From an uncultured Thermoleophilia bacterium (GTDB lineage: Bacteria; Actinomycetota; Thermoleophilia; UBA2241), in assembly GCA_963715985.1 (NCBI GenBank), contig CAVQSP010000017.1:1-64000 (forward strand): DNA of 64,000 nt, read 5' to 3'. The notes under the pieces were generated by a model. The model was not told the origin of the DNA. It worked only from the letters and a program-made list of their open reading frames with translations, and ran no database searches. The translations under genes and the position numbers were made by a program. Below are positions 4,453-44,066 of this stretch, piece after piece (within the stretch, counting starts at the first letter, position 1; every line of letters begins with the position of its first letter).

Positions 4453-4528
4453 GGGCCGCCGGCTCAGTTGGGAGAGCGTCGCCGGTGCACGGCGGAGGTC
4501 AGGGGCTCGAATCCGCTGCGGTCCACCA
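4453..4528 (+). tRNA. tRNA-Ala(TGC), full length but degenerate (possible pseudo-tRNA)
   Basis: 76-nt cloverleaf: acceptor GGGCCGC/GCGGTCC with G3:U70 Ala determinant, D arm GCTC-AGTTGGGA-GAGC, anticodon TGC, encoded CCA; non-canonical C8, G33, C54 and a G:G mismatch in the T stem. Confidence 0.85.
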
Positions 4529-4555
4529 AGCCCACTGCACCCGCCGATGCCGGCC

Positions 4556-5460
4556 CTACCCGGTGCTCGCGAACGAGCCGGACACCCACTCCCGCGACAG
4601 GTCGACGGCGAGTCGCTGCAGGGTCGTCCACGCCTCCGGCCCCTGCTCCGCCTCTGACAGGCGCACGCCGACCAGGCGGAAGTCGCTGCGCAGGTCGCGC
4701 AGGACGTCCGACGCCTTGACGTTCCGCGCCCTCGCCGGCATCGTTTCGGTTCCGCGAAGGCCCGCCATAGATCTTCCAGGGTGCGAAAGACGCTGCTCCA
4801 CGCGGGATAGGAGCTCGGCAGGCCGCCCGGCAGGGCCGTGAGCCACCCGGCGTCTGAGGAGGCCGTAGAGCCGCTGGTTCCGCAGTGCATGGATCTCCAG
4901 GAGACCGGCCATGCGCAAGGCCTCCAGGGCCTCCGCGATGTTGCGCTTGGTGTAGCCCGCATCGGCCGCTATGTCGGCAGCCGAGAGTCGCGCCGACGGA
5001 TCGGCGAGAAAGGCGCGCACGACCTCGGCGCGCGCCCCCACGCCGAACAGGGCGCGCAGACGCATCACGATGAGGGACGGGGGCGCTGAAGTCGGCGACG
5101 GCGGAGCGCCTCGTGCGCTGGAAAGGGACGGGCCTGAGTCGCGCCGGGCCAGCGCAGGCCCGAGTTGGCGTTGACCGTCGCCGCCGTCTGGCCGAATGCA
5201 GCCTGTGCCTCCGGCGTCTCGGCAGCGAGCAGGTTCCTCAATCGGGTCACCGACACGTAGCGTCCGTAGGTGATGCACCAATCGGTCGCTTCGTCGCGCA
5301 GGCGAGGGTCGGTGTCGCCGAGGGACGCGGTGAAGAGGATCAGGCGCTCGGGGTCGATGACGTGCGAGGAGTGACAGCGCTGCCAGCCCGAGACGCCCAG
5401 CTCGGCCCACAGGCTCCATGCGAGAGCCTGTGGCGTCTCGGTGAGTTGCTCGCTAGTGTC
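4556..5460 (-). CDS. Winged-HTH-containing protein, putative antitoxin/regulator (frameshifted)
   Basis: Stitched: LAWSLWAELGVSGW...IDPERLIL...DPRLRDEATDWC...LRALFGVGARAEVVRAFL...LSAADIAADAGYTKRNIAEALEAL (HTH). Confidence 0.65.
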
Positions 5461-6033
5461 GGCGCCGCTGACCTCCACGCCGAGCATGATGAGGGTCGCC
5501 ACGGGCTCGTCACGGTAGCCATCTGAGGGGTCGTGTGTGCGGCTCCAGCGAGCCGCGGTCAGGAGTTCCTCTCGTGTCGGCTTCAGCCTCCGCAAGTCTG
5601 CCGAGTGCTTGCTCCCCGGGTCCCTGATCGACCCCGGCGTACAGCTTGAAGCAGACCTGGTCCAGGCGTCCCGCTAGCATGCACTGTCAGGCTCCCATAC
5701 CGTCTGCGCTCGACGCGCCCCTCGAAGCCCTCGGGCAGGCCGAAGCGGAGGAGCTCGGCGGGCCCGGATTGAGCCAGTCATCCGAGAGCCCCACGGTCCG
5801 GGCGACGCTCACGACCGCGTCCATGAGGGGAGGCGGGAGAGGGTCGGCGGAGATGTAGCCGCCGTCTTCCACAAGTGCGAGTGCATAGAGGTCTCTCGTG
5901 GGGCGGCTCACCAGCCCCATAGCATGAGGGCGCTGCCGCCGATGGCGACGATCTCATACGTCAGTCCACGAGCCTCAAGGACCTCCCCCAAGGTCTTGAG
6001 AGCCTCGTCCAGCAGTTGTCCATCCATGTCCAT
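5450..6033 (-). CDS. DUF6036-like nucleotidyltransferase (putative type IV TA toxin), frameshifted
   Basis: Manual translation MDMDGQLLDEALKTLGEVLEARGLTYEIVAIGGSALML-GLVSRPTRDL...DDWLNPGP...KLYA: GG-S/A plus RxTxDxD-type NTase motifs (second Asp reads Tyr here). Confidence 0.7.
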
Positions 6034-6049
6034 GTGAACATGTTACATG
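6031..6049. promoter_or_regulatory. Imperfect palindrome overlapping the NTase start, candidate autoregulatory operator
   Basis: CATGTGAACATGTTACATG versus its reverse complement CATGTAACATGTTCACATG. Confidence 0.4.
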
Positions 6050-6134
6050 CTCGATACGCGAAAGCAACATGGAAATCTCGACGAGGTATCCTAAGTCGAT
6101 CGCGCCGTGGGCAGACGCGAGGTCCTGCGACCCC

Positions 6135-6168
6135 GAGGTCAGGGGTTCGACTCCCCTGCGGTCCACCA
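6135..6168 (+). repeat. tRNA-Ala 3' fragment (att-like direct repeat, copy B)
   Basis: GAGGTCAGGGGTTCGACTCCCCTGCGGTCCACCA matches the 3' end of 4453-4528 and has an intact T arm. Confidence 0.85.
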
Positions 6169-6419
6169 ACGTTGTCGTAATGACAACGTTTCTCCTGTAA
6201 ATGAACCACTTCTGGTGTCCGGTCGCCCACCCCATCGCTCTCGCGCCTCTCTACGCCTCTTCCGTGAGCGCGAGACCGCACATACTGCAGCAGGGGAGAC
6301 CCAGGATCGTCTGGCCGTACCGCGCAGGTTCGAGCTTGGTCTAGGTTGGGCCCGCCGGCGGCGTTGTCAGCGTCGTACGGCATGACCAAGCGCCGCGACG
6401 CGCTGGGAACGGGCATGCG

Positions 6420-6936
6420 AGCTTCGCCTCGCCTCTACGATTTCGTCGACGACAATCCGTTGATCAGCATGTTTCCGGTGAGCTACACGGACAAGCCCTC
6501 CGTCATCGCTCAAAACGACAACGTGGTCTCCATCAACTCGGCGCTGCAGGTAGACCTGATGGGACAGGTCGTGGCCGACACCATGGGCCCCGGCAGTACA
6601 CCGGCGTCGGCGGTCAGCGTCGACTTCGTCCGCGTTGCCGCGGCCAGCAAGGGTGGACGCGCGATCATCGCTCTGCCGTCGACCGCGAAGAACGGTGCGG
6701 TCAGCCGGATCGTCACCAAGATGAGTGATGGCGCTGCGGTCACCACCATGCGCGCCGACATCGACTACGTGGTCACGGAGCAAGGCGTGGCGCATCTCAA
6801 GGGCAAGACCTTGCGGGAGCGTCGCCGCGAGCTGCTCGCCATCGCCCAGCCCGAGTTCCGGGGTCTCATCGAGGATGACTACGGCGCACTCTGCTGCGCA
6901 GCCACGGCTCCGTCTCCGGCGTCGGCCGGTGGATGA
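6420..6936 (+). pseudogene. Acetyl-CoA hydrolase/4-hydroxybutyrate CoA-transferase C-terminal fragment
   Basis: LYDFVDDNP...SINSALQVDLMGQV...DFVR...GGRAIIALPST...DYVVTEQGVAHLKGKTLRER; N-terminal half absent. Confidence 0.75.
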
Positions 6937-7206: not shown

Positions 7207-8558
7207 CTGACGGCGATCGCATTCCGCGATCTGGACCGGCTGACCGGTCATGGCCGCTGCGAACTACGTCGCGATGCGCTGGCGATCGCCGCCGCGGGCG
7301 TTGCTGCGGCCGATCCGGCGGCGGCGTTCGTGCGCTCGGTCACCCTCGATGGCAACGTCTTGAGGGCCGGCCGCGAGGCCTTCGATCTCTCAGGCCGCGA
7401 TGTGTTCGTGGTCGGGGCGGGAAAAGCGACGATCGGCATCGCCGCCGCGCTCGATGGACTGCTCGGCTCGCGCATCCGCGACGGGGCGGTGGCGGTCAAG
7501 CACGGACAGGCTCGGCCGCTGGACCACATCGAGGTCCTCGAAGCCGCGCACCCCGTGCCCGACGAGGGGAGCGCTGCCGCTGGAGACCGGCTCCTGGCCA
7601 TCGCCAGGATGGCCCGGCCCGGCGATCTGCTGATCGCCATCTTCACCGGCGGCAGTTCGGCTCTCGCGGTGGCGCCGGCCGAGGGGCTCACCTTGGCCGA
7701 CAAAGTCGCCACCGGCCAGGTGCTCCTCGCCTCCGGCGCCGACATCGTCAGCATGAACAACGTACGCAAGCACCTGTCGCGGCTGAAGGGAGGGCGACTA
7801 GGCGCGGCTTGCCGCTGCACCATCCTCAACTTCAGCGTCTCAGACGTGGTCGGAGACCCGCCGCACGTCTTCACGAATCCGACGGTCCCCGACCCATCCA
7901 CTTTCGCCGACGCGCAGGAGGCGTGCGACCGCTTCGGCCTTTGGGATGAGCTGCCTTCGCCGGTCGCGGCGCATCTGCGTCGTGCGGACCCGGCGGCCGA
8001 GACGGTGCGGGAACTCGCCGATGTGCACACCCACGTGCTCGCGACTTCGGCCACGATGTGTTCGGCAGCGCTCGCCGCTGCTTCGAGCTCGGCTACGCAC
8101 CGGAGCTGTTGACGCTGGAGCTCGAGGGCGACAGCGCCGCGGCGGGGCGGCTGCTCGCGCGCTCGGCTCACGCGCTCGGACCCGGCTGCGCTCTCGTCGC
8201 AGGCGGCGAGACCGTCGTCGCGCTCGGATCGGCGCCGCACGGCCTCGGCGGTCCGAGCCAGGAGGCCGCGGTGGCCGCCGCCATCGAGCTCGCCGGCGGT
8301 GGCCCGGCCTGTGCTTTGTGCCTCGACTCGGACGGCAGCGACGGCCCCACCGATGCCGCGGGCGGAATCGTTGACGACTTGACGGTCGCCGAGCTGGCCG
8401 CTCAGGGCGTCGACCCCATGAGCGCTCTTGCGGGACACGCCGCCTACGACCTGCTCGCGGCTACCGGCAACCTCCTGGTGACGGGCCCCACCGGCACCAA
8501 CGTCAACGACCTGCGCCTCGTACTCACCGGCCGCTCGGAGCGGTCGGGAAGGGCGTAG
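7207..8558 (+). CDS. Glycerate 2-kinase / hydroxypyruvate reductase (DUF4147+MOFRL, TtuD-like), frameshifted
   Basis: GGAGGA RBS; GAGKA, AAHPVPD, TGGSSAL, NNVRKHLSRLKGG, SDVVGD, GGETVV, SDGSDGPTDAAGG, TGPTGTNVND motifs. Confidence 0.85.
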
Positions 8559-12458: not shown

Positions 12459-13541
12459 ATGAAGCGCATCGCGGTGATTCCCGGAGACGGGGTAGGTCCC
12501 GAGGTCGTCCGAGAGTCGGAGAAGGTGCTCCGCATGGTCGGAACGATGGACCCGGCCGTCGAGCTGGCCTTCGACCACTACGAGTGGGGCACCGACAACT
12601 ACCTCAGTACCGGCGAGATGATGCCGGAGGACGCCCTCGACATCCTGCAGCGACTACGACGCCCTTCTCTTCGGCGCGGTCGGCTCGCCTGCCGTCAAGG
12701 ACCACGTCACCCTCAGGGACCTCCTGCTCAAGATCCGCTTCGGATTCGACCTCTACGTGAATCTGCGGCCGGTGAAGCTGCTCGACGGCGTTGAGACGCC
12801 TCTTGCGCAACGCCAAGCAGGCCGATGTCGACATGGTGTTCGTTCGCGAGGGCACCGAGGGCGAGTACGCGGGCGTCGGTGACCGCATCTACAGAGGGGA
12901 CCTCGCGAGAGGTCGCACTGCAGACGGCGGTCTTCAGCCGGAGAGGCACCGAGCGCGTCATCCGCTGGGCCTTCGAGCTCGGCAGACGCGAGAGCCGCTC
13001 GGTGACGAGCGTGAGCAAGGCCAACGCGCTCAACTACTCCGCCGTCCTCTGGGACGAGGTCTTCGACGAGATCGCCCTGGAATACCCGGATGTGCCGGCG
13101 CAGAGGCTCCTGGTCGACGCCGCCGCGATGTTCATGGTCATGGAGCCCGAGCGGTTCGGCGTCGTCGTGGCCTCCAACCTGTTCGCCGACATCCTCACCG
13201 ATCTCGGCGCCGCGATCATGGGAGGCATGGGCCTGGCGCCGAGCGCCGGCCTCAATCCGGAGCGCATCTACCCCTCCATGTTCGAGCCGATCCACGGCTC
13301 GGCGCCCGAGATCGCCGGCAGGGGCGAGGCGAATCCGATCGGCTCGATCTGGAGCGCCGCCCAGATGCTCGACCACCTCGGGTTCCCAGCATGGAGCGCG
13401 GAGATCCTGCGGTCCATCAACGAGGTCCTCAGAGCGGGCGTCGTCCGCACTCCAGACCTGGGCGGCGCGTCGTCGACCGTAGAGATGGGAGACGCCATCG
13501 CTGCTGCGCTCACGCAGCCGAAGGTGGCGACTCGGGCGTGA
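12459..13541 (+). CDS. Tartrate/D-malate dehydrogenase (decarboxylating), IDH/IPMDH family, frameshifted
   Basis: IAVIPGDGVGPEV, SKANAL, VVASNLFADILTDL, PSMFEPIHGSAPEIAG, ANPIGSIWSAAQMLDHLG, TPDLGG. Confidence 0.8.
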
Positions 13542-30335: not shown

Positions 30336-30338
30336 GCC

Positions 30339-32406: not shown

Positions 32407-32524
32407 AACGCAACGCCACTCCGCAGTCCTCACCATCACTTGCTGACACTCCGGCCCTGCTCCCCACGCTCAGGATGGCATTCAGCGGCACTTCGCGGTA
32501 CCTCCTAACACATTAGTGGACGCG

Positions 32525-32569
32525 TTTGCACGGCGGAGGTCAGGGGTTCGACTCCCCTGCGGTCCACCA
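32525..32569 (+). repeat. tRNA-Ala 3' half from anticodon loop to CCA (att-like, copy C)
   Basis: TTTGCACGGCGGAGGTCAGGGGTTCGACTCCCCTGCGGTCCACCA; no 5' half upstream. Confidence 0.9.
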
Positions 32570-32710
32570 CTGATTCTCAAGGAAATCGTCGCCTGTAAGC
32601 CCCCCGCGCGACCCGCGTACCCGCCGTCTGCCACCATTCTGCAACCCAGAACCGTGCGTAGGGTTGGCGTGCTTGGACGTGCGCCTGGATGGCACGCATT
32701 GGGACGCCTT

Positions 32711-32935
32711 GGGACGAAACGGGACTACTCCCCCACCTGGCGGGTATCGCCAAGAGACACGCGACTCCTGACATGAGCGATGCTCAACACGGGAGGCTCT
32801 GGTCCGCCGGCGGCACGTTGCGGCCACCGCAGTCCGGCGGGGAGCCACCGGCAGGCTGGTCCGCTGGCCGGTCTTCGTTCTTGCCGGGACCGGGCCCTAT
32901 GGGGCCGAGGGGCCAGAGGGACAGAAGGGGGTGCC
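32711..32935 (+). repeat. Conserved structured leader of about 225 bp, copy 1
   Basis: Aligns with 35904-36127 (GGGACGAAACGGGACTACTCCCCC...GGGGAGCCAC...GAAGGGGG). Confidence 0.85.
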
Positions 32936-33260
32936 GCTTGGGAGAGCCCATCGCGTCAACCTGATGAGCCGTGTCCCTGCGGCACACCGCTCGTGGCCCG
33001 CCTGCGGTGGCAAGCCGGCTCGTGCTGCCCGCGTCGCCCTCGACGGCCGCTGTCGACGATGCCCAGCCTCCCGGCACCGCGCCCTTGGAGAAGGCCGAAA
33101 GCTGCGGTCTGGCGCCGAGCAGAGCGAGAGAGGACAGCACGACACGCGAGCCGGCGGCGCCCTTGGCCGAGCGTTCCCGATCATCGCGCCATCGCTGCCC
33201 AGGCTTCTGAGAGCCGCTCGCGACGAATCATGTGGGAGCCATGCAGAAGGGGGAGACGAC

Positions 33261-35485: not shown

Positions 35486-35903
35486 GGGACGTGCGCCAAG
35501 GCGGGCGGGGCAGACGCAGGGGTCGCCCGCCCGGGGCGGAGGTGGGGGGTCTTCGAGAGTCGGGTCACCGGCCCTTGGGGAACGGCCCGGGTCGCCCCTG
35601 CCGAGCACATGAGCGAGATTCGTGTGACGCGAGTGCCGCGCACGAAGCCGGTGACTGACGCCCACGGATCCCCCCGAGGGACTCGGAGATGGTTCTCGCC
35701 AGCCACCAGGCCGAGCTCACCCAGGGTAGGGCGAGGGGCGCCGCCGATCACGAGGTGCGCGTCAACACGGGCAGCACGCTGCTGCTCGAGAAGACCGTCC
35801 TCACGAAGCGCTCGTGGAAGAGCAGCGCGGCGCTGCCCACGAACGTCGCTCTCCTGGAGGGTGCGGGCCGGAAACGTCGCCGGCGATGCCGGGGGGTCTC
35901 GTG

Positions 35904-36127
35904 GGGACGAAACGGGACTACTCCCCCGCCTGCCGGGTATCGCCAAGAGATACGAGATTCCTGACATGAGCGGCGCTCAGTACGGGAGGCTCTGATCCGC
36001 CGCCGGCACTTTGCGGCCACCTTCATCCGGCGGGGAGCCACTGGTGAGGCCCGCGGGCGGGCCGGTCTTCGTGCCTTCCAGGACCGACAGCCCGGGGGGC
36101 CAAGGGGCAGCTGAGGAAGGGGGCTGC
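35904..36127 (+). repeat. Conserved structured leader, copy 2, ending in the RBS of the SRPBCC gene
   Basis: Homologous to 32711-32935; ends AGGAAGGGGG just before ATG 36133. Confidence 0.85.
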
Positions 36128-36132
36128 GCGGG

Positions 36133-36570
36133 ATGACCAGGATCGAGAGGACCATCGAGATCGAGGCTCCGGTAGAGGAGGTCTTTGATTTCGTCGCTGA
36201 CTGGCGCAACAAATCGAACTGGTACGTAGGAGTGCTCGATTGGAGACCCACGACCGAGCAAACAAGGGGAGTGGGTGCACGGTTTGTCTTCAAGACGAAG
36301 TTCATGGGCATGCACCCCGAGACAGAAATGGAGACCCGCGCCTTCGTCGACAACCAGAACATCGAATACGTGTCGATCAGGGGCACCGACTTGAAGCGCC
36401 AGGTGCTGTTCGTGTCCCTGGACAACCGCACAGAGGTCACGGACATCTCCGAGTACAGGCTCCCGATGTCTCTCCTGGGTGACTTGATAGATGCGCTGTC
36501 GTTCCGGCGCCGGCAGGAGCGGCGCGCCGAGGAGTCCCTGCAGAAACTGAAGAGGCTGACGGAACACTAG
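36133..36570 (+). CDS. SRPBCC/polyketide cyclase-like family protein
   Basis: MTRIERTIEIEAPVEEVFDFVADW...GVGARF; visibly lower GC than its neighbours. Confidence 0.8.
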   Translation: MTRIERTIEIEAPVEEVFDFVADWRNKSNWYVGVLDWRPTTEQTRGVGARFVFKTKFMGMHPETEMETRAFVDNQNIEYVSIRGTDLKRQVLFVSLDNRTEVTDISEYRLPMSLLGDLIDALSFRRRQERRAEESLQKLKRLTEH

Positions 36571-37125
36571 ACTGCTCTTTCGCCCCGCGGTCGCGATACT
36601 CGACGGTTCCGTGTCTCATCGAAAGGGGCCGACGCATCCTTTCGGGCGGCGGCCTGCAGCGTCACCGAGGCGGGCGTCGCCGCCCCGCCCGCCGGTTCTC
36701 TCTGAGCTCCGCGTCGATCCTCGCCGCGGCGACCGAAGCGACGAAGGCGACCGATCCCGCCGACCCCTCCGTTCGTGTGAAGGGACACGGGCGGAAAACC
36801 ACGTGTCGCGGCACCCGGACCGTGTCCCGGGCCTCCCGCATTGGGTCTCGGGCACAGGCGTGACCCCCAAGACAGAATCGACAGACCCGACGATCCGATC
36901 CGATCTGTGGCCTCCCGGCGATGCTGTCACCGACTCGCCAGAGCCGCCGTCAGCTCGTGTCGACCTTCTGCGCGGCTTCCCATGTCTCCGCGCCGCGCCG
37001 CACGCAGCCAGCAGGCGCCCGTTGCGCCGGCCGCTCGTCGGCGTCCAACGGCCACGGCGAAGAAACGCCCCCCTCGCTCAGTCTGTAGTGGCGGAGAGGT
37101 ATCTCCAACGACACGGGGAGGGGAC

Positions 37126-37989
37126 ATGGATGCCACGCAGTCCACCGAGCGGCGTTCCGCCGCAGGCACCTGGACGATCGCGCTCGTCGTCCTGCTTCTG
37201 CTGTGCGCGAGCGCGCTCGTGACCGCCTGCGGCGGCTCCGGCGGACAGGCAATGGGTTCGGCGCCTCCGGCAGCTTCGCCGAGCACGGCCCAGTGGGACT
37301 ACGTCGTGCTGGGGGACTCCGCCTTCGCCGCGCCGGACGGCTCGACGACGGTGGCGCACGCCCAAGCGCGGCTGATCAAGCGCGACCTCGGCGTGGACAC
37401 GAAGGTCTACTGGGCCTACTACCCGGGCACGACCAGCGCGCGCATTGCTGACGAGCTGCGCTACGACAAGCGGCTGCGCGAGGCGATCCGCACGGCCGAG
37501 GTGGTGCTCTTCGACGTGCCCGTCGGCGAGCTGAAGCAGACCGTCCCCTTCGACATGACGGCGTACCAGCCCCTCCCCGGAAGCCCGGAGAGGTACCGCA
37601 AGGGCATGGCGCGGATGCTGGTGGACTACCGCAGGGACGCAAGGGCGATCGTCAACGCGATCGTCTCCCTGCGCAGCCCCGACGAGGCGAGCATCCGGGC
37701 GATCGACCTCTGGCAGCTGGGCTACCCGGGGTTTCGCAAGATGGGCCTTGGCGCCGTCATGCGCACGGCCTGGCTCCGCATGAACAGGGCCGTCGACGAG
37801 GCGTGCGCGGCGCAGGGCGTGACGGTGGTCGACGCCTATGCGGCGTTCATGGGGCCTGACGGCAGGACGGACCCGGTCGCCGCCGGCAACATCCTGCCCG
37901 ACCAGATGCACCTGACGGACAAGGGCATGGCCACGCTCGCGGAGCTGCTCAACGAAGCAGGCTACGCGGAGATCGCCCCGACGCCGTAG
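37126..37989 (+). CDS. SGNH/GDSL hydrolase lipoprotein
   Basis: Lipobox VTAC; YVVLGDS block I; PDQMHLTDKG (DxxH). Confidence 0.8.
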   Translation: MDATQSTERRSAAGTWTIALVVLLLLCASALVTACGGSGGQAMGSAPPAASPSTAQWDYVVLGDSAFAAPDGSTTVAHAQARLIKRDLGVDTKVYWAYYPGTTSARIADELRYDKRLREAIRTAEVVLFDVPVGELKQTVPFDMTAYQPLPGSPERYRKGMARMLVDYRRDARAIVNAIVSLRSPDEASIRAIDLWQLGYPGFRKMGLGAVMRTAWLRMNRAVDEACAAQGVTVVDAYAAFMGPDGRTDPVAAGNILPDQMHLTDKGMATLAELLNEAGYAEIAPTP

Positions 37990-38031
37990 GCCAAGGGACG
38001 CCTCCTGGAAGGCCTGCCATACCTCAAACCG

Positions 38032-38073
38032 GCACGGCGGATGTCGGCGGTTCGAACCCCATGCGGTCCACCA
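38032..38073 (+). repeat. tRNA-Ala 3' half, diverged (copy D), followed by sequence homologous to that after copy C
   Basis: GCACGGCGGATGTCGGCGGTTCGAACCCCATGCGGTCCACCA then CTGATTCTCA...AAGCCCCC...CCATTCTGCAACCCAGA. Confidence 0.8.
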
Positions 38074-38299
38074 CTGATTCTCAGGGTGATCGTCACCTGC
38101 AAGCCCCCGCGAGACCCCCGAGCCGGCCGTCTGCAGCCATTCTGCAACCCAGATCCGTGCGCCTGGGTGGGAGTAGCTGGCGCTCGCTGCGGCCAAACGG
38201 GACTACTCTGGCGCCCGCGGGGAACCCCATTCGAAGTACGCGACTCCTCAGGTGGTCGTCCATCCCAGGGGTCACGGGCCACGGAGCTGGGGGTGGGTC

Positions 38300-38941
38300 A
38301 TGGCGAGCCTCACGAAGGCCAGCCGAGAGGTCGCAGCTGTCGTCGCCCTGGCACTGAGCCTGGTGCTCTCTGGCCGCCTGCGGTGACTCGGGCAGCCCGA
38401 CCCCGACCCGCCCCTCGACCTTGCCGACGCGGAGCACCCCCGTCCCGGCCTATTCGTTCGACCCTGGGTCCGGCACCACCGCGGGCCTTCAGTAAGAGCA
38501 CGGACGGCCTGGAGTTCGTGCCCTGGGTCGACATGGAGGTCAGTGCGCTTGGCTACTGCGACGCCGGTGGGGACGGGCTCCTGAACTCGCACACGGTCGG
38601 CATCTTCGACACCGACACCAAGGAGCTCGTCACGCCCACCGTCGTCGTCGACAGCGAGAGCGTTCTGGACGGCTCCTACCGCTACGAGCCCATCACGCCG
38701 GTGGTCTTGAAGGAGGGCAGGTCCTACATGGTGGCCGGCGACTCTGAGCCACCCTTCGACCCTGTGGCTTTCGACCCTGTGGCGGGGGGCGGGAGCCGCA
38801 ACTGGGCGCCCGAGATGCGGTTCGTCGGGCACAGCGAGAGCTATGGCGACTTCGAGTTCCCAGGGTACGCGGAACCGGTACTTGTGGATGGCCCCCAACT
38901 TCAAGTTCATGCCGGTCCCGGCCGCCTCGCCCGCGCAGTAG
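38300..38941 (+). CDS. Exported DUF4082-like protein, frameshifted
   Basis: Signal-like N-terminus; GLEFVP...VSALGY.D.GGDGLLNSHTVGIFD...YRYEPITPVVLKEGRSY...GPNFKF. Confidence 0.6.
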
Positions 38942-38989
38942 GCAGTCGCTGGCCGACCGGCGCATCCGCGCTCTTGTCCCGACGGTGCC

Positions 38990-39030
38990 GCACGGCGGAG
39001 GTCAGGGGTTCTACCACCTGCGGTCCACCA
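38990..39030 (+). repeat. tRNA-Ala 3' half, diverged (copy E)
   Basis: GCACGGCGGAGGTCAGGGGTTCTACCACCTGCGGTCCACCA. Confidence 0.85.
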
Positions 39031-39336
39031 GCACTTGCAGGTACATCGCGTCCTGTGGGCCTGCCGGGAGGCCCCCGCAACGGCCCTTTGCGACCATCCT
39101 GCATCCCAACGCCGGTCGGGAAGGCGCCTTCGTCTCGGCGATGTCCTATCCGTCGGCGTGCCCGGAGATCGGCAGAGTGATGGTAAGAACGTCATCGCGA
39201 TGGTGCGTTGCTCAGGCCACGCCGGCCTCTCCAGCCGATGCCACTTCGACGGCCGTCCCGTTGCCATTCCAACCGCGCATTCACTTCCTCCTGTAGGGTA
39301 GCTGGGTAGCGGGCTCCGAGTGAGATCGGACTGCGT

Positions 39337-40200
39337 ATGAGCACTCATGGCTTCGGCAGTGCCATCATCCACGTGGACCACCTCTCCAAGCACTACGGCG
39401 ACGTGCGTGCGGTCGACGATGTCAGCTTCGACGTGGCCGAGGGCGAGATCCTGGGACTCCTCGGCCACAACGGCGCCGGCAAGACGACGACCATCCGCAT
39501 GTTGACCGGGCGCGTCCGGCCGACAAGCGGCCACGCACGCATCGCCGGCCACGACATCATGCGCGAGCGTGAGCACGTGAAGCCGCTCATCAATCTGGTG
39601 TTCGAAGAGCAGAATCTCTACGAGCGTCAAACGGGCCGCGAGAACCTGGAGCTGTTCGCCAAGCTCTACGGCGCGCCGTCGGCTCGCGTCCCGGAGCTTC
39701 TCGAGCGCGTCGGCCTGACGGACGCCGCATCCCGCAAGGTCAGGACCTACTCCAGCGGCATGAAGCAGCGGCTGCTCATCGTCCGCGCGTTGGTGAACGA
39801 TCCTCGCGTCTTGTTTCTCGACGAACCGACCAAGGGCCTGGACCCGTCATCGGCCCGTGACGTGCGTGGCATCATCCGCGACCACGCGCGCGCCGGTGCC
39901 ACCATCTTCCTCACCACGCACTACATGGAAGAGGCGGACGAGCTGTGCGACCGCGTCGCCTTCCTGGCAGCGGGCGTGATCGTGGCGCTGGACACGCCGC
40001 GTGAGCTCAAGCTCCGTTATGGCGAGCGCACCGCCACCGTCCTTCTGCGCGACCGGTCGGAGCACGAGATCCGTCTTGACGACGGCGGGGACGCAGCCCG
40101 TCTCGAGGCGTGGATGGCCGCCGGTGAGGTGCTCACCGTGCACTCCAACGAGGGCACCCTCGAGGATGTCTTCGTGAATCTGGCCGGGAGGCCCCTGTGA
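39337..40200 (+). CDS. ABC-2 type exporter ATP-binding protein
   Basis: GHNGAGKT, YSSGMKQR, LDEPTKGLD, TTHYMEEA. Confidence 0.95.
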   Translation: MSTHGFGSAIIHVDHLSKHYGDVRAVDDVSFDVAEGEILGLLGHNGAGKTTTIRMLTGRVRPTSGHARIAGHDIMREREHVKPLINLVFEEQNLYERQTGRENLELFAKLYGAPSARVPELLERVGLTDAASRKVRTYSSGMKQRLLIVRALVNDPRVLFLDEPTKGLDPSSARDVRGIIRDHARAGATIFLTTHYMEEADELCDRVAFLAAGVIVALDTPRELKLRYGERTATVLLRDRSEHEIRLDDGGDAARLEAWMAAGEVLTVHSNEGTLEDVFVNLAGRPL

Positions 40201-41288
40201 ACGTCGCGCGCGTCAACGCCATCTACCGCAAGGATCTGCGCGATGCGCTGCGTGACTCGCGCCTCATCATGGCCATCGTCATGCCGTTGCTCATCGGCCT
40301 CCTCTACAGCTTCATGTTCAAGGACGACACGAGGCCGGCGGCCAAGCTCGGCGTCGTCGCGTCGACGTCGACGCGGTTGCCCGTCGCTCTTCAGGCGGCG
40401 ACGAAGGCGGCCCTCCAGTTGAAGGTCCAGTCCTTTGGCGATGCAGCGGCACTGACCCAGCAGGTACGAGACGAGAACGTGGACGTCGGGCTGATCATCC
40501 CGGACGGCTTCGACGCGGCGCTGACGAGCGGCGCGTCGCCGAAGCTCACCGTGATCCTGCCGGCCTCGCCGAGCTTCGGCGGTGACTACGTGGCGGCGGT
40601 CCTCGACCGGGTGACGCAGGCGCTCGCGGGGCAGGTGCCGGCGGCGACCATCGCGCGGGTAGTGCTCCCCGCCAGGGCCGGGACCTCTGCATCAGCATTC
40701 GAGACGCTCGGCGCGCGGAAGGGCTTCGTGCTCGTCGCCGTCATCCTCATGCTCGCCATGATCGCCGTCTACGCGCTGCCCGCCGTGCTCACCGAGGAGA
40801 CCGAGAAACGCACCGTGGAGGCGCTCACTCTCATCGCTTCCGACGCCGAAGTGATCATCGCCAAGTCGCTGTTCGGCCTCACGTACTGCCTGATCTCCGT
40901 GCCGCTGATGCTCGTGATCACCCGCGTGGTCCCCGAGAACGTCCTGCTCTTCGTCGTGGACGTCGTGCTGACGTCGGTGGCCCTGGTCGGCCTTGGTCTG
41001 CTGCTGGGTGGGCTCATGCGGACGCAGACGCAGCTCAACACCTGGAGCAGCGTCGCCTTGATCCCCCTGATCGTCCCGGCCATCATCGTCGGGCTGCCCG
41101 TGCCCGGCTGGGTCGAGGCCATCGTGTCCGTGCTGCCCACGGCGCAGACGATGCGGCTTGGGGTGAACGCGCTGGCGGGCCGCCAGCTGTTTGGCGCGGA
41201 GTGGCTCTCGATCGCGATCATCGTCGGCTGGGCGGTCGCCGCCTACGGCCTCGTCTGGTGGCGGCTGTCGCGCCAGGAGGCGGCCTGA
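40197..41288 (+). CDS. ABC-2 type exporter permease
   Basis: TM, extracellular loop, EETEKRTVEAL, further TMs. Confidence 0.85.
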   Translation: MNVARVNAIYRKDLRDALRDSRLIMAIVMPLLIGLLYSFMFKDDTRPAAKLGVVASTSTRLPVALQAATKAALQLKVQSFGDAAALTQQVRDENVDVGLIIPDGFDAALTSGASPKLTVILPASPSFGGDYVAAVLDRVTQALAGQVPAATIARVVLPARAGTSASAFETLGARKGFVLVAVILMLAMIAVYALPAVLTEETEKRTVEALTLIASDAEVIIAKSLFGLTYCLISVPLMLVITRVVPENVLLFVVDVVLTSVALVGLGLLLGGLMRTQTQLNTWSSVALIPLIVPAIIVGLPVPGWVEAIVSVLPTAQTMRLGVNALAGRQLFGAEWLSIAIIVGWAVAAYGLVWWRLSRQEAA

Positions 41289-41424
41289 CGGCCTTGCCTC
41301 GGCGATCGTGTGACTGGCACGCCAGGGCCGATGCGCGGCTCGCAGCAGGCGGTCCTCAGCATGAACGTTGGAATCGAGCATCAGCTTGGGAACACTCCAT
41401 GCGTCCAGCGCGAAGGAACGGACA

Positions 41425-42234
41425 GTGAGAGAGCTACGACTCGGCGGCCTGCGGATCGCCTACACGCAGGCGGGTGACGGCCCGCCACTCGTCCTGCTGC
41501 ATGGCGGCATGGAGGACAGCCGCACGTGGCGCCGGCAGGTGGACGGTCTCGCGGACGAGTTCACCGTGCTGGCCTGGGACGCGCCCGGCTGCGGCCGATC
41601 CTCGGATGTGCAGGAGAGCTGGCGTATGCCTGAGTATGCGGACGCGCTGGCCTCGTGGCTCCGCGCCACGGGGATCGAACGCCCACACGTCCTCGGCCTC
41701 TCCTGGGGAAGCTCCCTGGCGCTCGAGCTGTACCGGCGGCATCCGCACGTGCCTGCGTCGCTCATCCTGGCCTCGGCCTATGCAGGATGGGCGGGCTCCC
41801 TCTCTGCGGAAGAGACCGCGGGACGCCTCGAGGGCATCCTCGCCGTGGCCGACCTGCCACTCGAGGAGGTGCTCGAGGCAGTCCCCGGGGTGCTCAGCGC
41901 CGGTGCCCCATCGGGCCTGCTTGAAGAGCTGACGGCCATGTGGGCGGACAACACGGGCAGCAGGAAGCCCGGCGGATTCCGGGCCATGGCGCACGCGATG
42001 GCGGAGGCGGACCTCCGCGACGTCCTTCCCCGGATCGAGGTCCCGGTGCTCCTGCTGTACGGAGAGCTCGATCAGCGATCGCCGCTGAAGGTCGCCCACG
42101 AACTCAACGAGCGGATCCCCGCGTCGAAACTCGTCATCATCAGGGGCGTCGGTCACGCGGCGAACGTGGAGGCACCGGAGGAGTTCAACGCACACGTGCG
42201 GACGTTCATCCGGTCGGTCATTCGGAGCCCGTGA
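41425..42234 (+). CDS. Alpha/beta fold hydrolase
   Basis: LLHGG, WDAPGCGRS, GLSWGS, GELDQR, GVGHAANVE. Confidence 0.9.
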   Translation: MRELRLGGLRIAYTQAGDGPPLVLLHGGMEDSRTWRRQVDGLADEFTVLAWDAPGCGRSSDVQESWRMPEYADALASWLRATGIERPHVLGLSWGSSLALELYRRHPHVPASLILASAYAGWAGSLSAEETAGRLEGILAVADLPLEEVLEAVPGVLSAGAPSGLLEELTAMWADNTGSRKPGGFRAMAHAMAEADLRDVLPRIEVPVLLLYGELDQRSPLKVAHELNERIPASKLVIIRGVGHAANVEAPEEFNAHVRTFIRSVIRSP

Positions 42235-42638
42235 TCCCTGGGCTGCAGTCCATATGGTGTCGGCTCTGCCGCCGGCATCTGCGCCGACGCACAAGCTGGG
42301 CTACCGGATCGAGGGACGGGAAGCAGCGAGGCGAGGAGGGTCAGGAGCTCGCTGCGGCACGGGCAGCAGGCGCCACAGGCAGGCGACTGGCCTGGTCCAC
42401 GGACCACGCCGCACCGACAAACAGCCGCCGCCGTGTGTTCGAGGCGTCGGTGGGTTGGTCGCCCGAGCCGGACCGGCGATCAGGTGTGGTCCGTCAGCGG
42501 CCGCCGACGTTGCCGACGGCCGAGGCCGAGGGCGCTGGATGACTTCCAGACGCCCTCGGCCTCGGCGGCTTCTCGGTGGTCGCGACTCTCAGGCCGCGGA
42601 CACGACGCATGTCCGCGCGGCCCGCGGCCCGACGCTTG

Positions 42639-43373
42639 TCACGCCGCCGGTCGCAGCTCGCTCTTGGGAGCGGTCGTGGAGGCGGGCTCGACGGACTTGA
42701 CGGGCTCGAAGCCGAGCTGCCGCAGACCAGCCGCCCGGAACCCCTTGACGACGAGGTAGACGCCCAGCGAGAACTCCCACACAGCGATCGGGAGTGCGCC
42801 GAGCCCCGACAACCCGGAGCCATACTCGTTGTAGCCGAACAACGTGGCCATGGTTGACGCGATGAGCAGCGGCGCGCCGATGAAGCCCAGCACGGGAAGG
42901 ATGCGCGGGACGAGGCGCGACTGGTAGAGCAGGGAACCGAGCAGCAGCGCGTTCACGGCCGGGATGAGACTCTGTGAGAGGGTGAACGTCCAGTCATGCA
43001 GGCCGACCAGCGTCTGGCCGGTGGCCAGCGCACTCGCCCCGGCTCCGGCCTGCCGCAGGGTCACGACCGCGAGGAGGACGAAGACGCCGGCGAAGATGGC
43101 GCCGGCCTCCAGGGTGCGGGTGGCGACGAAGCCCAGCGCGACCCCTTCGTTCTGCCGTTTGACCACCGGGAAGAGCGCGACGGCGGTGCCGATGCCGGCG
43201 AGCGCCACGATGATCTCCAGGACGCTGCCGACGTACACGCTGGTGTCCGGCCCGGAGCCGACGATGTAGTTCGCCCCACGCACGGCGTTGTAGAGAAACA
43301 GGGTCGGGATCGAGACGAAGGTGAGCAGGTAGAGCAAGCCCGCGGTCAGCGAGATCTTTCTGGTCGAAGTCAT
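42639..43373 (-). CDS. DUF4386 family membrane protein
   Basis: AGLLYLLTFVSIP, IGTAVALFPVVKRQNEGVALGFVATRTLEA, LYQSRLVPR, PIAVWEFSLGVYLVVKGF. Confidence 0.85.
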   Translation of the reverse strand: MTSTRKISLTAGLLYLLTFVSIPTLFLYNAVRGANYIVGSGPDTSVYVGSVLEIIVALAGIGTAVALFPVVKRQNEGVALGFVATRTLEAGAIFAGVFVLLAVVTLRQAGAGASALATGQTLVGLHDWTFTLSQSLIPAVNALLLGSLLYQSRLVPRILPVLGFIGAPLLIASTMATLFGYNEYGSGLSGLGALPIAVWEFSLGVYLVVKGFRAAGLRQLGFEPVKSVEPASTTAPKSELRPAA

Positions 43374-43453
43374 CTTGATCAACTCCCACGATCGGCTCTT
43401 GATCGAGCCGACGATTGCGATAATCGAACATACTGTGATATTAGGACATATAG

Positions 43454-43469
43454 TGGAGGAAAACCCCCA
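43454..43469. promoter_or_regulatory. Imperfect inverted repeat in the AT-rich promoter of the DUF4386 gene
   Basis: TGGAGG-AAAA-CCCCCA. Confidence 0.3.
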
Positions 43470-43689
43470 AAGTACTCGGGGATAGTTCAGCGTGCCCCGT
43501 GTGACACACGCCGAACCCAACGGGCGGTATGTGGGGATGGCCCGCCGCATTCCTTGACAGCCGCTGGCCTCGAGTCCCCGCAACAGGATCGCACGCGCTC
43601 GGGGACGGCAAGGAGAGGCGATACCCTGTTCCAAGTACGACTCTCGTCCGTCGGCGCCGCCCGACCCGAGCCTCACGCAACCGGCCCGG

Positions 43690-43925
43690 TGGTGGATCTG
43701 CGCGACGAGCTCGACGGCCACACCGTGAGCTCCACATCGCCCCTCGAGGACATCGACGCGACGCCCTTCATGAAGGGGCTTCCGGACGATCGCTGCCGGT
43801 GCCCGCCTTGGGGCTGCGTCTTCATGGGCAAGATGACTGCTCGGCACGCCGACCGCGAGGAGGTCTACGAGGCCGGCGACGAGTTCTTGTGGTTCAGCCC
43901 CAGCGAAGAGCTGCGCGCGGCCGAG
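43690..43925 (+). pseudogene. Cupin-like protein relic with internal deletion
   Basis: ELDGHTVS...DIDATPFMKGLPDDRCRCPPWGCVFMGKMTARHADREEVYEAGD fused directly to EFLWFSPSEEL; no proper start. Confidence 0.55.
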
Positions 43926-44023
43926 GGCCCGAGCCTTCACGCCTCGCTCTCATGCAGCGGACCTGCGCCTGCCGCCGGTGGCCGTTGCGTCCCTGTCGTC
44001 TTCCGCGTCAGCGTGACGCGGTC

Positions 44024-44066
44024 CTCACCCCGGAGGTCAGTGGTTCGGATCCACGTACGCCCACCA
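44024..44066 (+). repeat. Degenerate tRNA 3' half, probably tRNA-Val derived (copy F)
   Basis: CCTCACCCCGGAGGTCAGTGGTTCGGATCCACGTACGCCCACCA: GGTTCG T arm, CGCCC-A-CCA end, CAC-like anticodon. Confidence 0.55.

Follow-up and report, generated by a model that had tools for sequence, protein, structure and literature searches.

The locus analysed here raises the question of how fragments of one tRNA gene came to divide a stretch of bacterial DNA into blocks of small genes, and whether these blocks move in the manner of integron cassettes, as the initial annotation proposed. The window, the whole 64,000-nucleotide stretch that was analysed, contains six to seven tRNA-derived units on the same strand. 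In uncultured actinobacteria of soils and wetlands, mobile DNA has long inserted at a tRNA-Ala gene, and the window covers one flank of this site, which is typical for one genus of uncultured Thermoleophilia. Every insertion left half a tRNA behind as a scar, and small blocks of accessory genes, mostly without an integrase of their own, accumulated in a cassette-like fashion. The tRNA-Ala(UGC) gene is the probable centre of an integration hotspot, of which the window shows only the part lying downstream, on the 3′ side; the array was likely built by serial site-specific integration through tyrosine integrases, the genes for which were then lost.

tRNA-derived units in the window

The units, all on the + strand, are as follows.

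4453–4528, + strand: unit A, a full-length, decayed tRNA-Ala(UGC) pseudogene, 89% identical to a relative's intact gene
6135–6168, + strand: unit B, T arm and acceptor end of tRNA-Ala, 34/34 identical to unit C
32525–32569, + strand: unit C, tRNA-Ala 3′ half from anticodon loop to CCA, 45/45 identical to relatives' intact gene
38032–38073, + strand: unit D, tRNA-Ala 3′ half, 86% identical to C
38990–39030, + strand: unit E, tRNA-Ala 3′ half, 93% identical to C, T arm one base short
41330–41362, + strand: unit E′, internally deleted leftover of a 3′ unit, comprising the upstream-arm word GATGCGC and ..GGCGGTCCTCAGCA (acceptor-end remnant)
44033–44066, + strand: unit F, 3′ fragment of tRNA-Ile(GAT), 32/35 identical to the intact gene on contig C10

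A 34-nt T-arm/acceptor pattern (up to three mismatches) matches A, B and C, where none was expected from 100 shuffles. The genome-wide count of copies and orientations agrees with the same-strand arrangement first described: a profile built from 28 3′ halves recovered eight copies (E ≤ 3e-4), each of them on the + strand of the contig that carries it. Six lie on the window's contig (4486, 6135, 32526, 38031, 38990 and 94731, the copy at C17:94731 being a degenerate 3′ unit) and the other two on C10; within the bin, such arrays are present on three contigs.

The initial coordinates of units A to E hold, as does the observation that tRNA likeness in C, D and E begins inside the anticodon loop (TTTGCAC or GCAC). 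Unit F, originally called Val-like, best matches the 3′ part of the genome's own tRNA-Ile(GAT), and that label was rejected. In B and F likeness begins at GAGGTC (variable loop/T stem), outside the anticodon loop, and the two have an upstream arm of ∼20 nt in common (∼6113–6134 in front of B); B is followed by a hairpin and T run (6170–6196). Unit A, described as full, is full length but decayed, and was rejected as a working tRNA or functional target gene. ARAGORN detected no tRNA in the window, while Rfam gave no tRNA at gathering score across the window and, over 4300–4700, nothing that matches the tRNA model at E ≤ 10; relative to the relatives' intact gene, A displays changes at C8, G9, G32, G33 and C54 together with a broken T-stem pair. 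A promoter-like stretch (4385–4452) precedes it. As A is dead and ARAGORN found no tRNA-Ala(UGC) in this genome's assembly, the window's array is without its expected live target.

Unit E′ had been overlooked. It is more complete in related strains, and contigs of runs X1 and X2 join position 41343 to a tRNA-Ala 3′ half. Its presence means that block E–F is two blocks. The junction between the gene of block D–E and unit E is spanned by a short-read contig from another data set (38802–39055).

Arm repeats and shared arms

Repeats of the form CTGCAACC-N3-CTGCAACC accompany the units at set distances, mostly 65–71 nt upstream of 5′ units and 57–59 nt downstream of 3′ halves. The copies in the window, together with a direct repeat in the upstream arm of C, are listed below.

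4366–4384, + strand: CTGCAGCC-CCT-CCGCAACC, repeat copy, 68 nt upstream of A
32388–32406, + strand: GGCAAACG-CCC-GGCAAACG direct repeat, within the ∼170-nt upstream arm of C-type 3′ units
32628–32646, + strand: CTGCCACC-ATT-CTGCAACC repeat, 58 nt downstream of C
38131–38149, + strand: CTGCAGCC-ATT-CTGCAACC repeat, 57 nt downstream of D
39086–39106, + strand: CTTTGCGACC-AT-CCTGCATCC, a degenerate copy downstream of E

Among the fetched loci 21 of the 38 5′ fragments have the repeat within 160 nt, as do 8 of the 13 full copies. In the arm behind the 5′ half a second repeat lies ∼70 nt further on. The repeat is missing from the 20-kb loci of G007 and G010, two genomes without a 5′ array, which indicates that it is part of the elements and not of the native gene. 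The view that the elements share one recombination end proved incomplete, as C-type units also have a ∼170-nt upstream arm in common with each other and with units of other genomes.

Architecture across the genus

The layout typical of the genus consists of units comprising a promoter and tRNA-Ala 5′ half, then usually one intact tRNA-Ala(UGC), then 3′ halves, all co-oriented. In 9 of the 11 relatives' loci fetched first there is one intact tRNA-Ala(UGC), with 5′ fragments upstream only and 3′ fragments downstream only, again co-oriented; 17 of 24 same-genus genomes have at least two matches to unit C plus its arm. The breakpoints lie in the anticodon loop (TTGCAC), 5′ units being identical through ..TTGCACG(GC) and C-type 3′ units from ..TTGCACGG.

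The blocks are modular. Their presence and absence, compared across relatives, varies with breakpoints at or near units. In G013 the tRNA is followed directly by a flank that in G011 (94–95% identical) comes after four blocks bounded by 3′ fragments (28 kb). A one-gene 0.7-kb block is found in G006, G011 and G021 with different neighbours, and another, placed on the 5′ side in G011, is inverted and on the 3′ side in G015. The array of G006 packs 19 5′ fragments and the tRNA into 33.5 kb, with blocks of 566–3679 nt. Of its 33 called proteins 20 were tested; none is a recombinase, and they represent small accessory functions (GNAT, MarR with DJ-1, PadR with ABC, SDR, EamA and methyltransferase). 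Genes in this array run in the same direction as the tRNA in 21 of 34 cases. Solitary 5′ units with both repeats also occur beyond the tRNA-Ala locus, at G013:C2 near 338.7 kb (in a tRNA-Glu(CTC) array), G015:C4 and G056:C3.

Cargo blocks

The genes and leaders assigned to the blocks are listed below.

32783–32868, + strand: c-di-GMP-II-GAG-like riboswitch aptamer (RF03169), 23.2 bits, below the gathering score of 40
32931–35150, + strand: papain-family cysteine protease with lectin-like domain (PF00112 1e-22, PF18560 6e-40), coding call
35894–36110, + strand: second leader copy, 86% identical to 32701–32916 (families D4 and D18)
36133–36570, + strand: SRPBCC/polyketide-cyclase-like protein (Pfam), cargo
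36841–37989, + strand: GDSL-like lipase, both GDSL matches under the Pfam curated cut-offs (30.8 against 32.9 and 23.3 against 23.6 bits)
38300–38941, + strand: putative lipoprotein, sole gene of block D–E, signal peptide ending ..LLAAC, frameshifted in the assembly
39337–40200, + strand: ABC transporter ATPase, cargo of block E–E′
40197–41288, + strand: ABC-2 permease, cargo of block E–E′
41368–42234, + strand: alpha/beta hydrolase, cargo
42639–43940, − strand: DUF4386 protein, cargo

The description of each block as carrying unrelated cargo needs qualification for the 26-kb block B–C, which contains several truncated genes and is not clean cargo. The first aptamer leads the protease gene and is accompanied by a terminator-like hairpin (32853–32874). 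Homologous aptamer copies score 40.0 and 33.6 bits against RF03169, the one in the second leader (35976–36060) giving 40.0 bits and E 1.5e-6. The true start of the protease may lie later, near 33261.

Of the block divisions originally drawn, D–E stands, and it is indeed a single gene: applying five small differences found in short-read contigs (one base omitted at 38237, 38368, 38486 and 38866, and six at 38396) yields one open frame. The single-base differences are probably assembly errors. The uncorrected frames had no match in Pfam. Likeness to other genomes extends over 39223–41286, where it stops at the block end, and resumes in the next block from 41345. Blocks D–E and E–E′ are too small to hold an integrase.

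Integrase remnants

The window contains no intact integrase, as first reported, although two pseudogene fragments had been missed.

32260–32418, − strand: tyrosine-integrase pseudogene fragment (..ARDLCHDHATMLVCTGVHLEVFSERLGHASIGIT..) at the right end of block B–C (tblastn)
58380–58532, − strand: second integrase pseudogene fragment with an in-frame stop, beyond 4453–44066 (tblastn E 4e-7)

Seven of eight integrases of the genus match the first fragment in tblastn (E 3e-9 to 3e-8). It lies ∼105 nt upstream of unit C, a layout matched at G000:C8 and G014:C112, so that integrase pieces are found ∼105 nt upstream of three 3′ halves, C included. C-terminal integrase tails, antisense, also adjoin the repeat at C8:174470–174628 and near C8:179169. 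The neighbour of the second fragment (gene 57997–58335) is 84% identical to DNA behind a 3′ fragment in G015. The position of the pieces upstream of 3′ halves indicates that at least some blocks arrived with their own integrase and lost it later, which modifies the view of the blocks as non-autonomous, accurate in that most are without an integrase.

An intact integrase beside the functional tRNA-Ala, expected under the initial reading, was not seen: in 742 kb of array DNA none is linked to any tRNA-Ala unit. Nineteen integrase loci occur in this DNA; six are at least 1.1 kb, and none of the six is at the expected position. PF00589 had no match near the arrays in any of the five genomes checked, and no candidate trans-acting integrase is associated with the arrays.

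Mechanism and alternative explanations

In the proposed mechanism the elements would recombine with the tRNA gene within the anticodon loop, with TTGCAC as overlap and the strands of the anticodon stem on both sides; an overlap between two stem strands is the usual layout of a tyrosine integrase site. One kind of element would bring its own 3′ half and a downstream arm with CTGCAACC-N3-CTGCAACC repeats, displacing the old 3′ half downstream. The other would bring the repeat, a tRNA promoter and a 5′ half, displacing the old promoter and 5′ half upstream. Repeated rounds would stack blocks on either side of one intact gene. The integrase genes, presumably at the right-hand element end, antisense and adjoining the site, would mostly have been deleted to short pseudogene pieces, and the cargo partly decayed. 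Small blocks such as D–E and E–E′ would now be formed like cis-mobilizable elements, their integrase either lost or supplied by a sister element at arrival.

Serial integration is favoured with reasonable confidence by the in-phase breakpoints, the genus layout, the fixed repeat distances and the integrase remnants in the expected place. The presence/absence relation between G013 and G011, the block likeness that ends at units and the fuller E′ of related strains likewise make it the probable history. Known tRNA-gene islands point the same way, as anticodon-centred sites are common among them and some leave a 5′ fragment. Repeated site-specific insertion with crossover in the anticodon loop, the core of the initial proposal, is thus retained, with the units as its scars. 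Against it stand the lack of an intact integrase tied to a tRNA-Ala unit in the 742 kb, the dead full-length copy A of the window's array and the different starting point of likeness in B and F. The 19 integrase-free blocks of G006, with apparently complete small operons, are hard to obtain by deletion alone. A simple push-outward model predicts that the identity of 5′ units falls with distance from the tRNA, and the fall was not significant (rho −0.30, p 0.21). The circular junctions anticipated initially did not appear either: four contig sets (contigs only) held no circular, excision or cassette-loss junction.

Several of these points bear on the possibility, which we hold to be real if rather unlikely, that the locus is an active integron-like platform in which integrase-less blocks of one to few genes are the mobile units. 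Each block would carry an attP-like site of ∼300 bp (repeat, promoter, 5′ half, TTGCAC and an arm with the second repeat, or the 3′-half equivalent), and blocks would be inserted and excised in trans by a tyrosine integrase whose gene lies elsewhere or in rare autonomous members. The second repeat past the 5′ half makes junctions resemble complete sites, and if every array junction is formed like a full attP, blocks could be excised and reshuffled; the captured tRNA promoter could then drive cargo. The dense, recombinase-free array of G006, the 0.7-kb block with its differing neighbours, the block that is inverted between G011 and G015, and the lack of room for an integrase in D–E and E–E′ are consistent with such a platform. 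Integron cassettes have near-uniform gene orientation, whereas G006 genes do not (21/34). The integrase pieces beside some units indicate that deletion does occur, no candidate integrase accompanies the arrays, the contigs contain no excised-block junction, and many units are decayed, as are the truncated genes of block B–C.

The idea, raised at the outset, of a dispersed tRNA-derived repeat (MITE- or SINE-like) that transposes and is clustered here by chance holds in a weak sense for the solitary 5′ units elsewhere, such as that in the tRNA-Glu array, and perhaps for the degenerate unit at C17:94731. As an account of the arrays it is disfavoured and very improbable, since these copies are co-oriented with the intact gene and sorted into 5′ pieces upstream and 3′ pieces downstream, break at a single place in the anticodon loop, adjoin integrase remnants and, by eye rather than formal search, have no terminal inverted repeats or target duplications around them. 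Chimeric joining at conserved tRNA sequence during metagenome assembly is scarcely credible, even though the genome, a bin with 88.8% completeness and 7.29% contamination, has arrays on three contigs and probable single-base errors in the D–E gene: the same architecture recurs in numerous genomes of the genus that were assembled separately, an independent short-read contig crosses the junction at unit E, and the units are halves with element-specific arms, where a repeat-induced misjoin would yield whole tRNAs.

Comparison with known systems

Like integrons, the arrays consist of small units of one to few genes that have a conserved recombination site at the end and no recombinase of their own, and a platform promoter could drive cargo. 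Unlike in integrons, there is no intI by the array, tRNA halves with arm repeats take the place of folded attC sites, orientation is mixed, and insertion occurs on both sides of a gene that needs to stay intact. In Streptococcus thermophilus, Pavlovic et al. in 2004 reportedly showed mobilisation of cis-mobilizable elements and their accretion; those elements are said to resemble the present blocks in being flanked by attachment sites, in lacking recombination and transfer functions and in lying in tandem with related elements. Host, site and scale differ, and mobilisation, experimental there, is here a candidate property only.

Among known systems, tandem tRNA-gene islands, the Dehalococcoides ssrA islands and tycheposon-built islands come closest. 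The Islander collection (Hudson, Lau and Williams 2015, PMC4383910) maps 3919 tRNA-gene islands, of which 2083 have a site centred on the anticodon; 3′ fragments number 3760 and 5′ fragments 159. Tandem arrays exist, and island ends are marked, as here, by an intact gene and co-oriented displaced fragments. The collection requires an integrase per island, applies a 2-kb length filter and contains only four arrays of three or more, whereas the present arrays are long, with six to seven units in the window and 19 in G006, flank a single gene on either side and consist of blocks that nearly all are without an integrase and many of which are under 2 kb.

The tycheposon islands of Prochlorococcus (Hackl et al., bioRxiv 10.1101/2020.12.28.424599) similarly grow by repeated integration at a full-length tRNA, newcomers displacing older elements inward, with partial tRNAs and fragmented integrases strewn through the islands and niche-adaptive genes as cargo. 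The likeness is one of island anatomy, whereas what defines a tycheposon is an integrase clade and replication genes of its own; two-sided arrays with units of promoter and 5′ half are a feature of the present locus that the portion of that account used here does not mention.

At the ssrA gene of Dehalococcoides (McMurdie et al. 2011, PMC3146451) many islands likewise stand in tandem downstream of a single small-RNA gene, a direct repeat of the gene's 3′ end bounding each island, with further conserved bases adjoining the repeat. There, 16 islands have an integration module and 15 do not, and the latter were proposed to be cis-mobilizable elements moved by accretion. That system uses a CcrB-like serine recombinase and a tmRNA T-loop site with a 20 bp repeat, in 3′-side arrays only, whereas the present one has tyrosine integrase remnants, a site in the anticodon loop of tRNA-Ala and a second, promoter-bearing 5′ array.

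tRNA-derived units in the window

The array in the window is real, and belongs to a kind of two-sided tandem array, for the most part lacking integrases, that stands at tRNA-Ala in uncultured Thermoleophilia. The window is bases 1-64000 of contig C17, in a bin of 22 contigs and 4.35 Mb. All six same-strand tRNA-derived units proposed in the initial annotation are present, together with a further remnant, E', and the intervening blocks are named after the units that bound them:

4453-4528, + strand, unit A, full-length tRNA-Ala pseudogene
6135-6168, + strand, unit B, tRNA-derived fragment
32525-32569, + strand, unit C, tRNA-Ala 3' half
38032-38073, + strand, unit D, tRNA-Ala 3' half
38990-39030, + strand, unit E, tRNA-Ala 3' half
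41330-41362, + strand, unit E', internally deleted unit
44033-44066, + strand, unit F, tRNA-Ile(GAT) 3' end

These units are far beyond chance: a 34-nt word from the T-arm and acceptor, allowing up to three mismatches, matches A, B and C, with 0.00 matches expected (100 shuffles). A genome-wide search with a profile of 28 3' halves returned eight copies at E ≤ 3e-4, every one on the + strand of its own contig. Comparison of the sequences bore out the proposal that the tRNA-Ala likeness of C, D and E starts in the anticodon loop, while that of B and F to a tRNA begins at GAGGTC, these two sharing an upstream arm. Unit F, previously read as Val-like, is instead the 3' end of tRNA-Ile(GAT) (32/35 identical). 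Unit A had been taken for a full tRNA gene but is a pseudogene. ARAGORN and Rfam detect no tRNA in the window, and around A none even at E ≤ 10; the unit is altered at U8, A9, U33 and T54, and one T-stem pair is broken. A contig from each of two wetland runs connects position 41343 to a fuller tRNA-Ala 3' half, indicating that E' is a decayed unit.

Downstream of A and in its orientation, B, C, D and E are displaced, co-oriented end fragments on the correct side in the sense of Islander. The intact target gene and the tyrosine integrase in each island, for which Islander also looks, are absent from the window. No tRNA-Ala(UGC) is among the ARAGORN calls for the whole assembly (54 tRNAs, 1 tmRNA), so the live target gene of the arrays is either unassembled or located elsewhere. 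The same calls include a tRNA-Pyl(cta) at C13:555126-555198 and a tRNA-SeC at C13:139538-139635, on another contig of the genome. Directly upstream of the array, the open frame 1955-3265 encodes a repeat-domain protein, in which at least six tandem 168-nt (56-codon) copies, mutually 66-77% identical, occupy 2099-3181.

The same structure in the genome and genus

Contig C10 of the same genome carries an intact tRNA-Ile(GAT) (C10:289850) with the same downstream arm, followed by two tRNA-Ala 3' halves. Towards its end (307678) lie three units consisting of the promoter and tRNA-Ala 5' half, each followed by unrelated DNA:

C10:305105-305144, promoter and tRNA-Ala 5' half
C10:305679-305710, promoter and tRNA-Ala 5' half
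C10:307389-307412, promoter and tRNA-Ala 5' half

This contig end carries the structure's upstream half and may adjoin the start of the window. More units, and three integrase fragments, are found on contig C8.

Across 24 genomes of the genus, unit C with its arm was matched in 21, at least twice in 17 of them. The intact target gene of the Islander criterion is present in the relatives: in nine of the 11 loci fetched first, a single intact tRNA-Ala(UGC) is preceded by 5' fragments and followed by 3' fragments, every one co-oriented. The balance of the two sides varies among the genomes:

G021, six 5' units, gene, one 3' unit
G011, five 5' units, gene, four 3' units
G006, 19 5' fragments over 33.5 kb ahead of the gene
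G007, gene with no fragment within 10 kb; no CTGCAACC repeat in the 20-kb locus
G010, one 3' fragment; no CTGCAACC repeat in the 20-kb locus

In a species-representative collection the exact promoter plus 5'-half word occurs in 25 stretches, all from records whose titles name uncultured Thermoleophilia or Actinomycetes metagenome-assembled genomes. A 20-kb stretch of another relative (G064:C4:1161719-1181012; loci L094-L095) contains three full-length tRNA-Ala(tgc) ARAGORN calls, the 3' halves of two being diverged (86-89% identical), which shows that redundant full-length copies like A occur elsewhere.

Arms, repeats and riboswitch leaders

C, D and E have in common approximately 170 nt 3' of the CCA. 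Within this downstream arm, 57-58 nt past the tRNA end, is the direct repeat CTGCAACC-N3-CTGCAACC. Upstream of C, approximately 170 nt that include GGCAAACG-N3-GGCAAACG are common to 3' units of five relatives (G019, G011, G015, G017 and G006). In the fetched loci, which hold 38 5' fragments, 29 3' fragments and 13 full copies, the CTGCAACC repeat lies no more than 160 nt upstream of 21 of the 5' fragments, chiefly at 65-71 nt, and downstream of nine of the 3' fragments, chiefly at 57-59 nt. Two other roles for the repeat were rejected. It does not open a conserved reading frame running through the 3' half, as spacer lengths differ by non-multiples of three and the frames vary among copies; nor is it part of the native tRNA promoter, being missing from the 20-kb loci of G007 and G010.

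The repeat also occurs 3' of tRNA-Glu(CTC), tRNA-Ile(GAT) and tRNA-Ala(CGC) genes (G013:C2:338692-338735, L089; G060:C5, L055-L056). Downstream of tRNA-Glu(CTC) there are repeat arrays, one with a tRNA-Ala 5' unit and then an ABC transporter 79% identical to that of the window. Several tRNA genes seem to be used by related elements.

The downstream arm of C, and a second internal copy at 35894-36110, continue as a leader with a match to the model of the c-di-GMP-II-GAG riboswitch (RF03169, gathering score 40). Copies of the leader, 75-87% identical, are present in many genomes of the genus, and a terminator-like hairpin follows that of C (32853-32874). The matches in this genome are as follows:

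35976-36060, 40.0 bits (unlisted in the gathering run), precedes an SRPBCC protein and a GDSL-like lipase
32783-32868, 23.2 bits (under the gathering score), precedes a papain-like protease with a lectin domain
C10:295399-295486 (L038:7721-7808), 33.6 bits (under the gathering score), precedes a 376-aa protein

A candidate recombination site

The 5' units match the gene through ..TTGCACG(GC), after which come a hairpin, a conserved CAAGACGCAAGAGACG word and, approximately 70 nt on, a second CTGCAACC repeat. In the C-type 3' units their own arm (..GATGCGC) gives way to the gene at ..TTGCACGG. To judge from sequence, TTGCAC with the flanking anticodon-stem strands would have the form of a tyrosine-recombinase core, and the direct repeats on the arms fit predicted arm-type binding sites. 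The -10 box and discriminator, TATACTTGTCCCC(C/T)TCGT, are identical across species and copies in genomes with 5' arrays and different in G007, G010, G015 and G020, which fits a promoter supplied by the element.

Two types of element could produce such a structure. One would restore the 3' half and leave the old 3' half downstream, while the other would restore the promoter and 5' half and leave the old ones upstream. Were an element of the latter type to insert into a 3' half already displaced, a superfluous full-length copy would result. This would explain why unit A is full-length yet dead and has the repeat 68 nt ahead of it, and why ARAGORN makes three tRNA-Ala calls within a single G064 stretch.

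Integrases and their remnants

The initial annotation held that no intact integrase is present in the window, and indeed C17 has no match to the tyrosine-recombinase domain (PF00589), which is also lacking near the C10 array and near the arrays of five out of five relatives. Only pseudogene pieces were detected in the window:

32260-32418, opposite strand, integrase fragment just past the upstream arm of C (tblastn E ~3e-9, seven of eight query integrases)
58380-58532, - strand, integrase fragment with an in-frame stop

The gene adjoining the second piece (57997-58335, + strand) is 84% identical to DNA after the third 3' fragment in G015; together, the piece and its neighbour suggest that the hotspot may reach past F. 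A possible integrase tail upstream of A (~4300-4365; ..IDAGFRAA..), seen by eye only and unmatched in tblastn, is a hint.

When 742 kb of array DNA was searched by tblastn with eight integrases of the genus, 19 integrase loci were recovered, of which 13 were fragments of at most 666 nt and six extended over at least 1.1 kb. Three fragments sit approximately 105 nt upstream of a 3' half (that at C, C8:179025 and one on G014:C112), and at two C8 sites integrase C-terminal tails (..HVMPGMQEEAAEKIDAGL*) are antisense and adjoin the repeat. Such remnants beside 3' halves or the repeat indicate that at least some elements once had an integrase at the right-hand end, since removed by deletion. The expected position of an integrase is taken as antisense, adjoining the repeat and a tRNA-Ala unit. 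None of the six longer loci is so placed, and no intact integrase was found there by PF00589 in this genome and five relatives, with the C8 fragment in 54 genomes of the genus, by tblastn of the array DNA or by reading five candidate loci. Frameshifts interrupt several of the near-full-length integrases, but where a bin comes from long reads these may be errors of assembly.

Cargo of the blocks

The cargo of the blocks in the window is ordinary:

B-C, two-component system, S9 peptidase, MFS transporter, aminotransferase and others
C-D, papain-like protease with a lectin domain, SRPBCC protein and GDSL-like lipase (both GDSL matches slightly under Pfam cut-offs)
D-E, one lipoprotein gene
E-E', ABC ATPase and permease
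E'-F, alpha/beta hydrolase and DUF4386 protein

Between C and F, seven of eight genes are on the + strand. D-E is, as first described, a single-gene block, with nothing else between its units. Its gene is frameshifted in the assembly. Relative to the window, short-read contigs from three to four wetland runs lack single bases at 38237, 38368, 38486 and 38866 and six bases at 38396, and applying these differences gives one frame with a lipoprotein signal; the frameshifts are therefore likely a long-read assembly error. Other frameshifts and 'truncated' genes in this bin may have the same origin. Three truncated genes are in B-C:

6346-6936, acetyl-CoA hydrolase/transferase, C-terminal domain only, directly after B
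7330-8112, DUF4147 piece
12825-13541, isocitrate/isopropylmalate dehydrogenase (Iso_dh), C-terminal half, profile positions 145-348

The protease gene contains, close to its 3' end, a repeat with a short period of about 12 (CCCACGCCGACG-like; 34705-34824) that is probably a low-complexity linker and has length variants in metagenome contigs.

Blocks as modules

Blocks recur in other genomes at other positions with 72-97% identity. In G002 a small C8 block is all that separates the gene from the first 3' unit, and in G017 it directly precedes a 3' unit; one G011 block, on the 5' side there, is on the 3' side and inverted in G015; and the neighbours of a 0.7-kb one-gene block differ among G006, G011 and G021. 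A flank 94-95% identical in G013 and G011 comes directly after the gene in the former and after four 3'-unit-bounded blocks (28 kb) in the latter. The likeness of window blocks to other genomes stops at the units, as seen for the ABC block (39223-41286) and the hydrolase block (from 41345). Block content thus differs among relatives, with breakpoints at the repeats, and the core of the original idea stands.

Junctions were sought in contigs of sequencing runs from wetland, soil and sediment, in which 0.23-0.37 of the sampled words occur, four of the runs being used for 28000-47000. No junction of a circle or bridging a lost block was seen in the short contigs of these four runs over that interval, which is no argument against mobility. 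Other contig joints, such as 30944 to 39900 and 29992 to 31673, were taken as spurious, their sides being 21-25 nt between paralogous domains.

Origin of the array

We consider it likely that tyrosine integrases built the array by inserting elements one after another, site-specifically, at the anticodon loop, and that integrase loss and decay came later. This explains why the breakpoints are in phase, and also the arms, remnants and polymorphism. It accounts poorly, however, for the G006 array, in which 19 consecutive integrase-free blocks hold complete small operons with no mobility gene among 20 tested proteins (33 called). The missing decay gradient (decay of the 5' units with distance from the tRNA was not significant) and the lack of a live tRNA-Ala(UGC) in the bin are also poorly explained. 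Nested 'Russian doll' insertion of whole-tRNA elements predicts equal numbers of 5' and 3' fragments and was rejected on the counts in G006 (19 versus 1) and G021 (6 versus 1).

It is also possible, if rather unlikely, that the integrase-less blocks are themselves mobilized in trans, like integron cassettes or cis-mobilizable elements, with which all the data are compatible. Cassette genes of integrons are nearly all co-oriented with the platform promoter, while gene orientation in the G006 5' array is mixed (21 of 34 co-oriented); nor is there a linked integrase, or an excision junction in the short contigs of the four runs, which are unable to show absence. A fuller form, likewise possible if rather unlikely, envisages a two-sided gene-cassette platform centred on, and made from, a tRNA gene and working as an integron does. 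Integrase-less blocks of one to a few genes would each bring a complete attP-like site, in which CTGCAACC arm repeats flank either the 3' half or the tRNA-Ala promoter with the 5' half; the blocks would be inserted, excised and reshuffled at the anticodon loop by a tyrosine integrase acting in trans; and those on the 5' side would be transcribed from the strong tRNA promoter that each imports. With serial integration and integrase loss as the preferred reading, the first interpretation, an integron-like capture system, holds for the scars and for modular blocks with breakpoints at the units, but not for A as a gene, and some blocks once had integrases.

Should the blocks still move, chromosomal cassette arrays would have a second mode of assembly, evolved independently, in a poorly known soil and wetland class of Actinomycetota, and the att sites could be put to direct use in genetic tools. 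If the blocks are immobile, the locus is a dated record of serial integration and of the fixation of accessory genes, namely transporters, hydrolases, small regulators and riboswitch-led secreted enzymes.

Comparison with known systems

Tandem islands at tRNA genes are textbook knowledge. Island catalogues do not report long arrays of tiny integrase-free blocks on both sides of one tRNA gene, and in the literature searched neither arrays on both sides of a gene with promoter-bearing 5' halves nor arrays of this type in Thermoleophilia are described. The signature used here is that of Islander (PMC4383910), which demands an integrase per island, whereas no intact one is present in the window. 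Of its 3919 islands, 2083 have an anticodon-centred site and 159 a 5' fragment; only four arrays comprise three or more islands, and integrase-less candidates are discarded. Island finders that demand an integrase will miss most DNA of this kind.

The tycheposon preprint (bioRxiv 10.1101/2020.12.28.424599) reports island growth next to tRNA genes, the islands being strewn with partial tRNAs and fragmented integrases. Tycheposons are defined by a tyrosine or serine recombinase of their own clade and a replication module; among the 50 frames scanned against Pfam, from the window and the G006 array, there were no primase, helicase or polymerase domains. The Dehalococcoides ssrA islands (PMC3146451) form long 3'-side arrays in which 15 of 31 lack an integration module and were suggested to be cis-mobilizable elements; their recombinase is a serine recombinase, while the remnants here are of tyrosine integrases. 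Integrons differ in having an intI integrase gene with attI and a promoter beside the array; here no tyrosine recombinase domain was found in the window or near the arrays of five out of five relatives. Their attC sites are folding imperfect inverted repeats, whereas the putative sites here, as read from their sequences, are tRNA halves with direct-repeat arms. Blocks D-E and E-E', lying between 3' units and free of any recombination or transfer module, fit the structural definition of a CIME.
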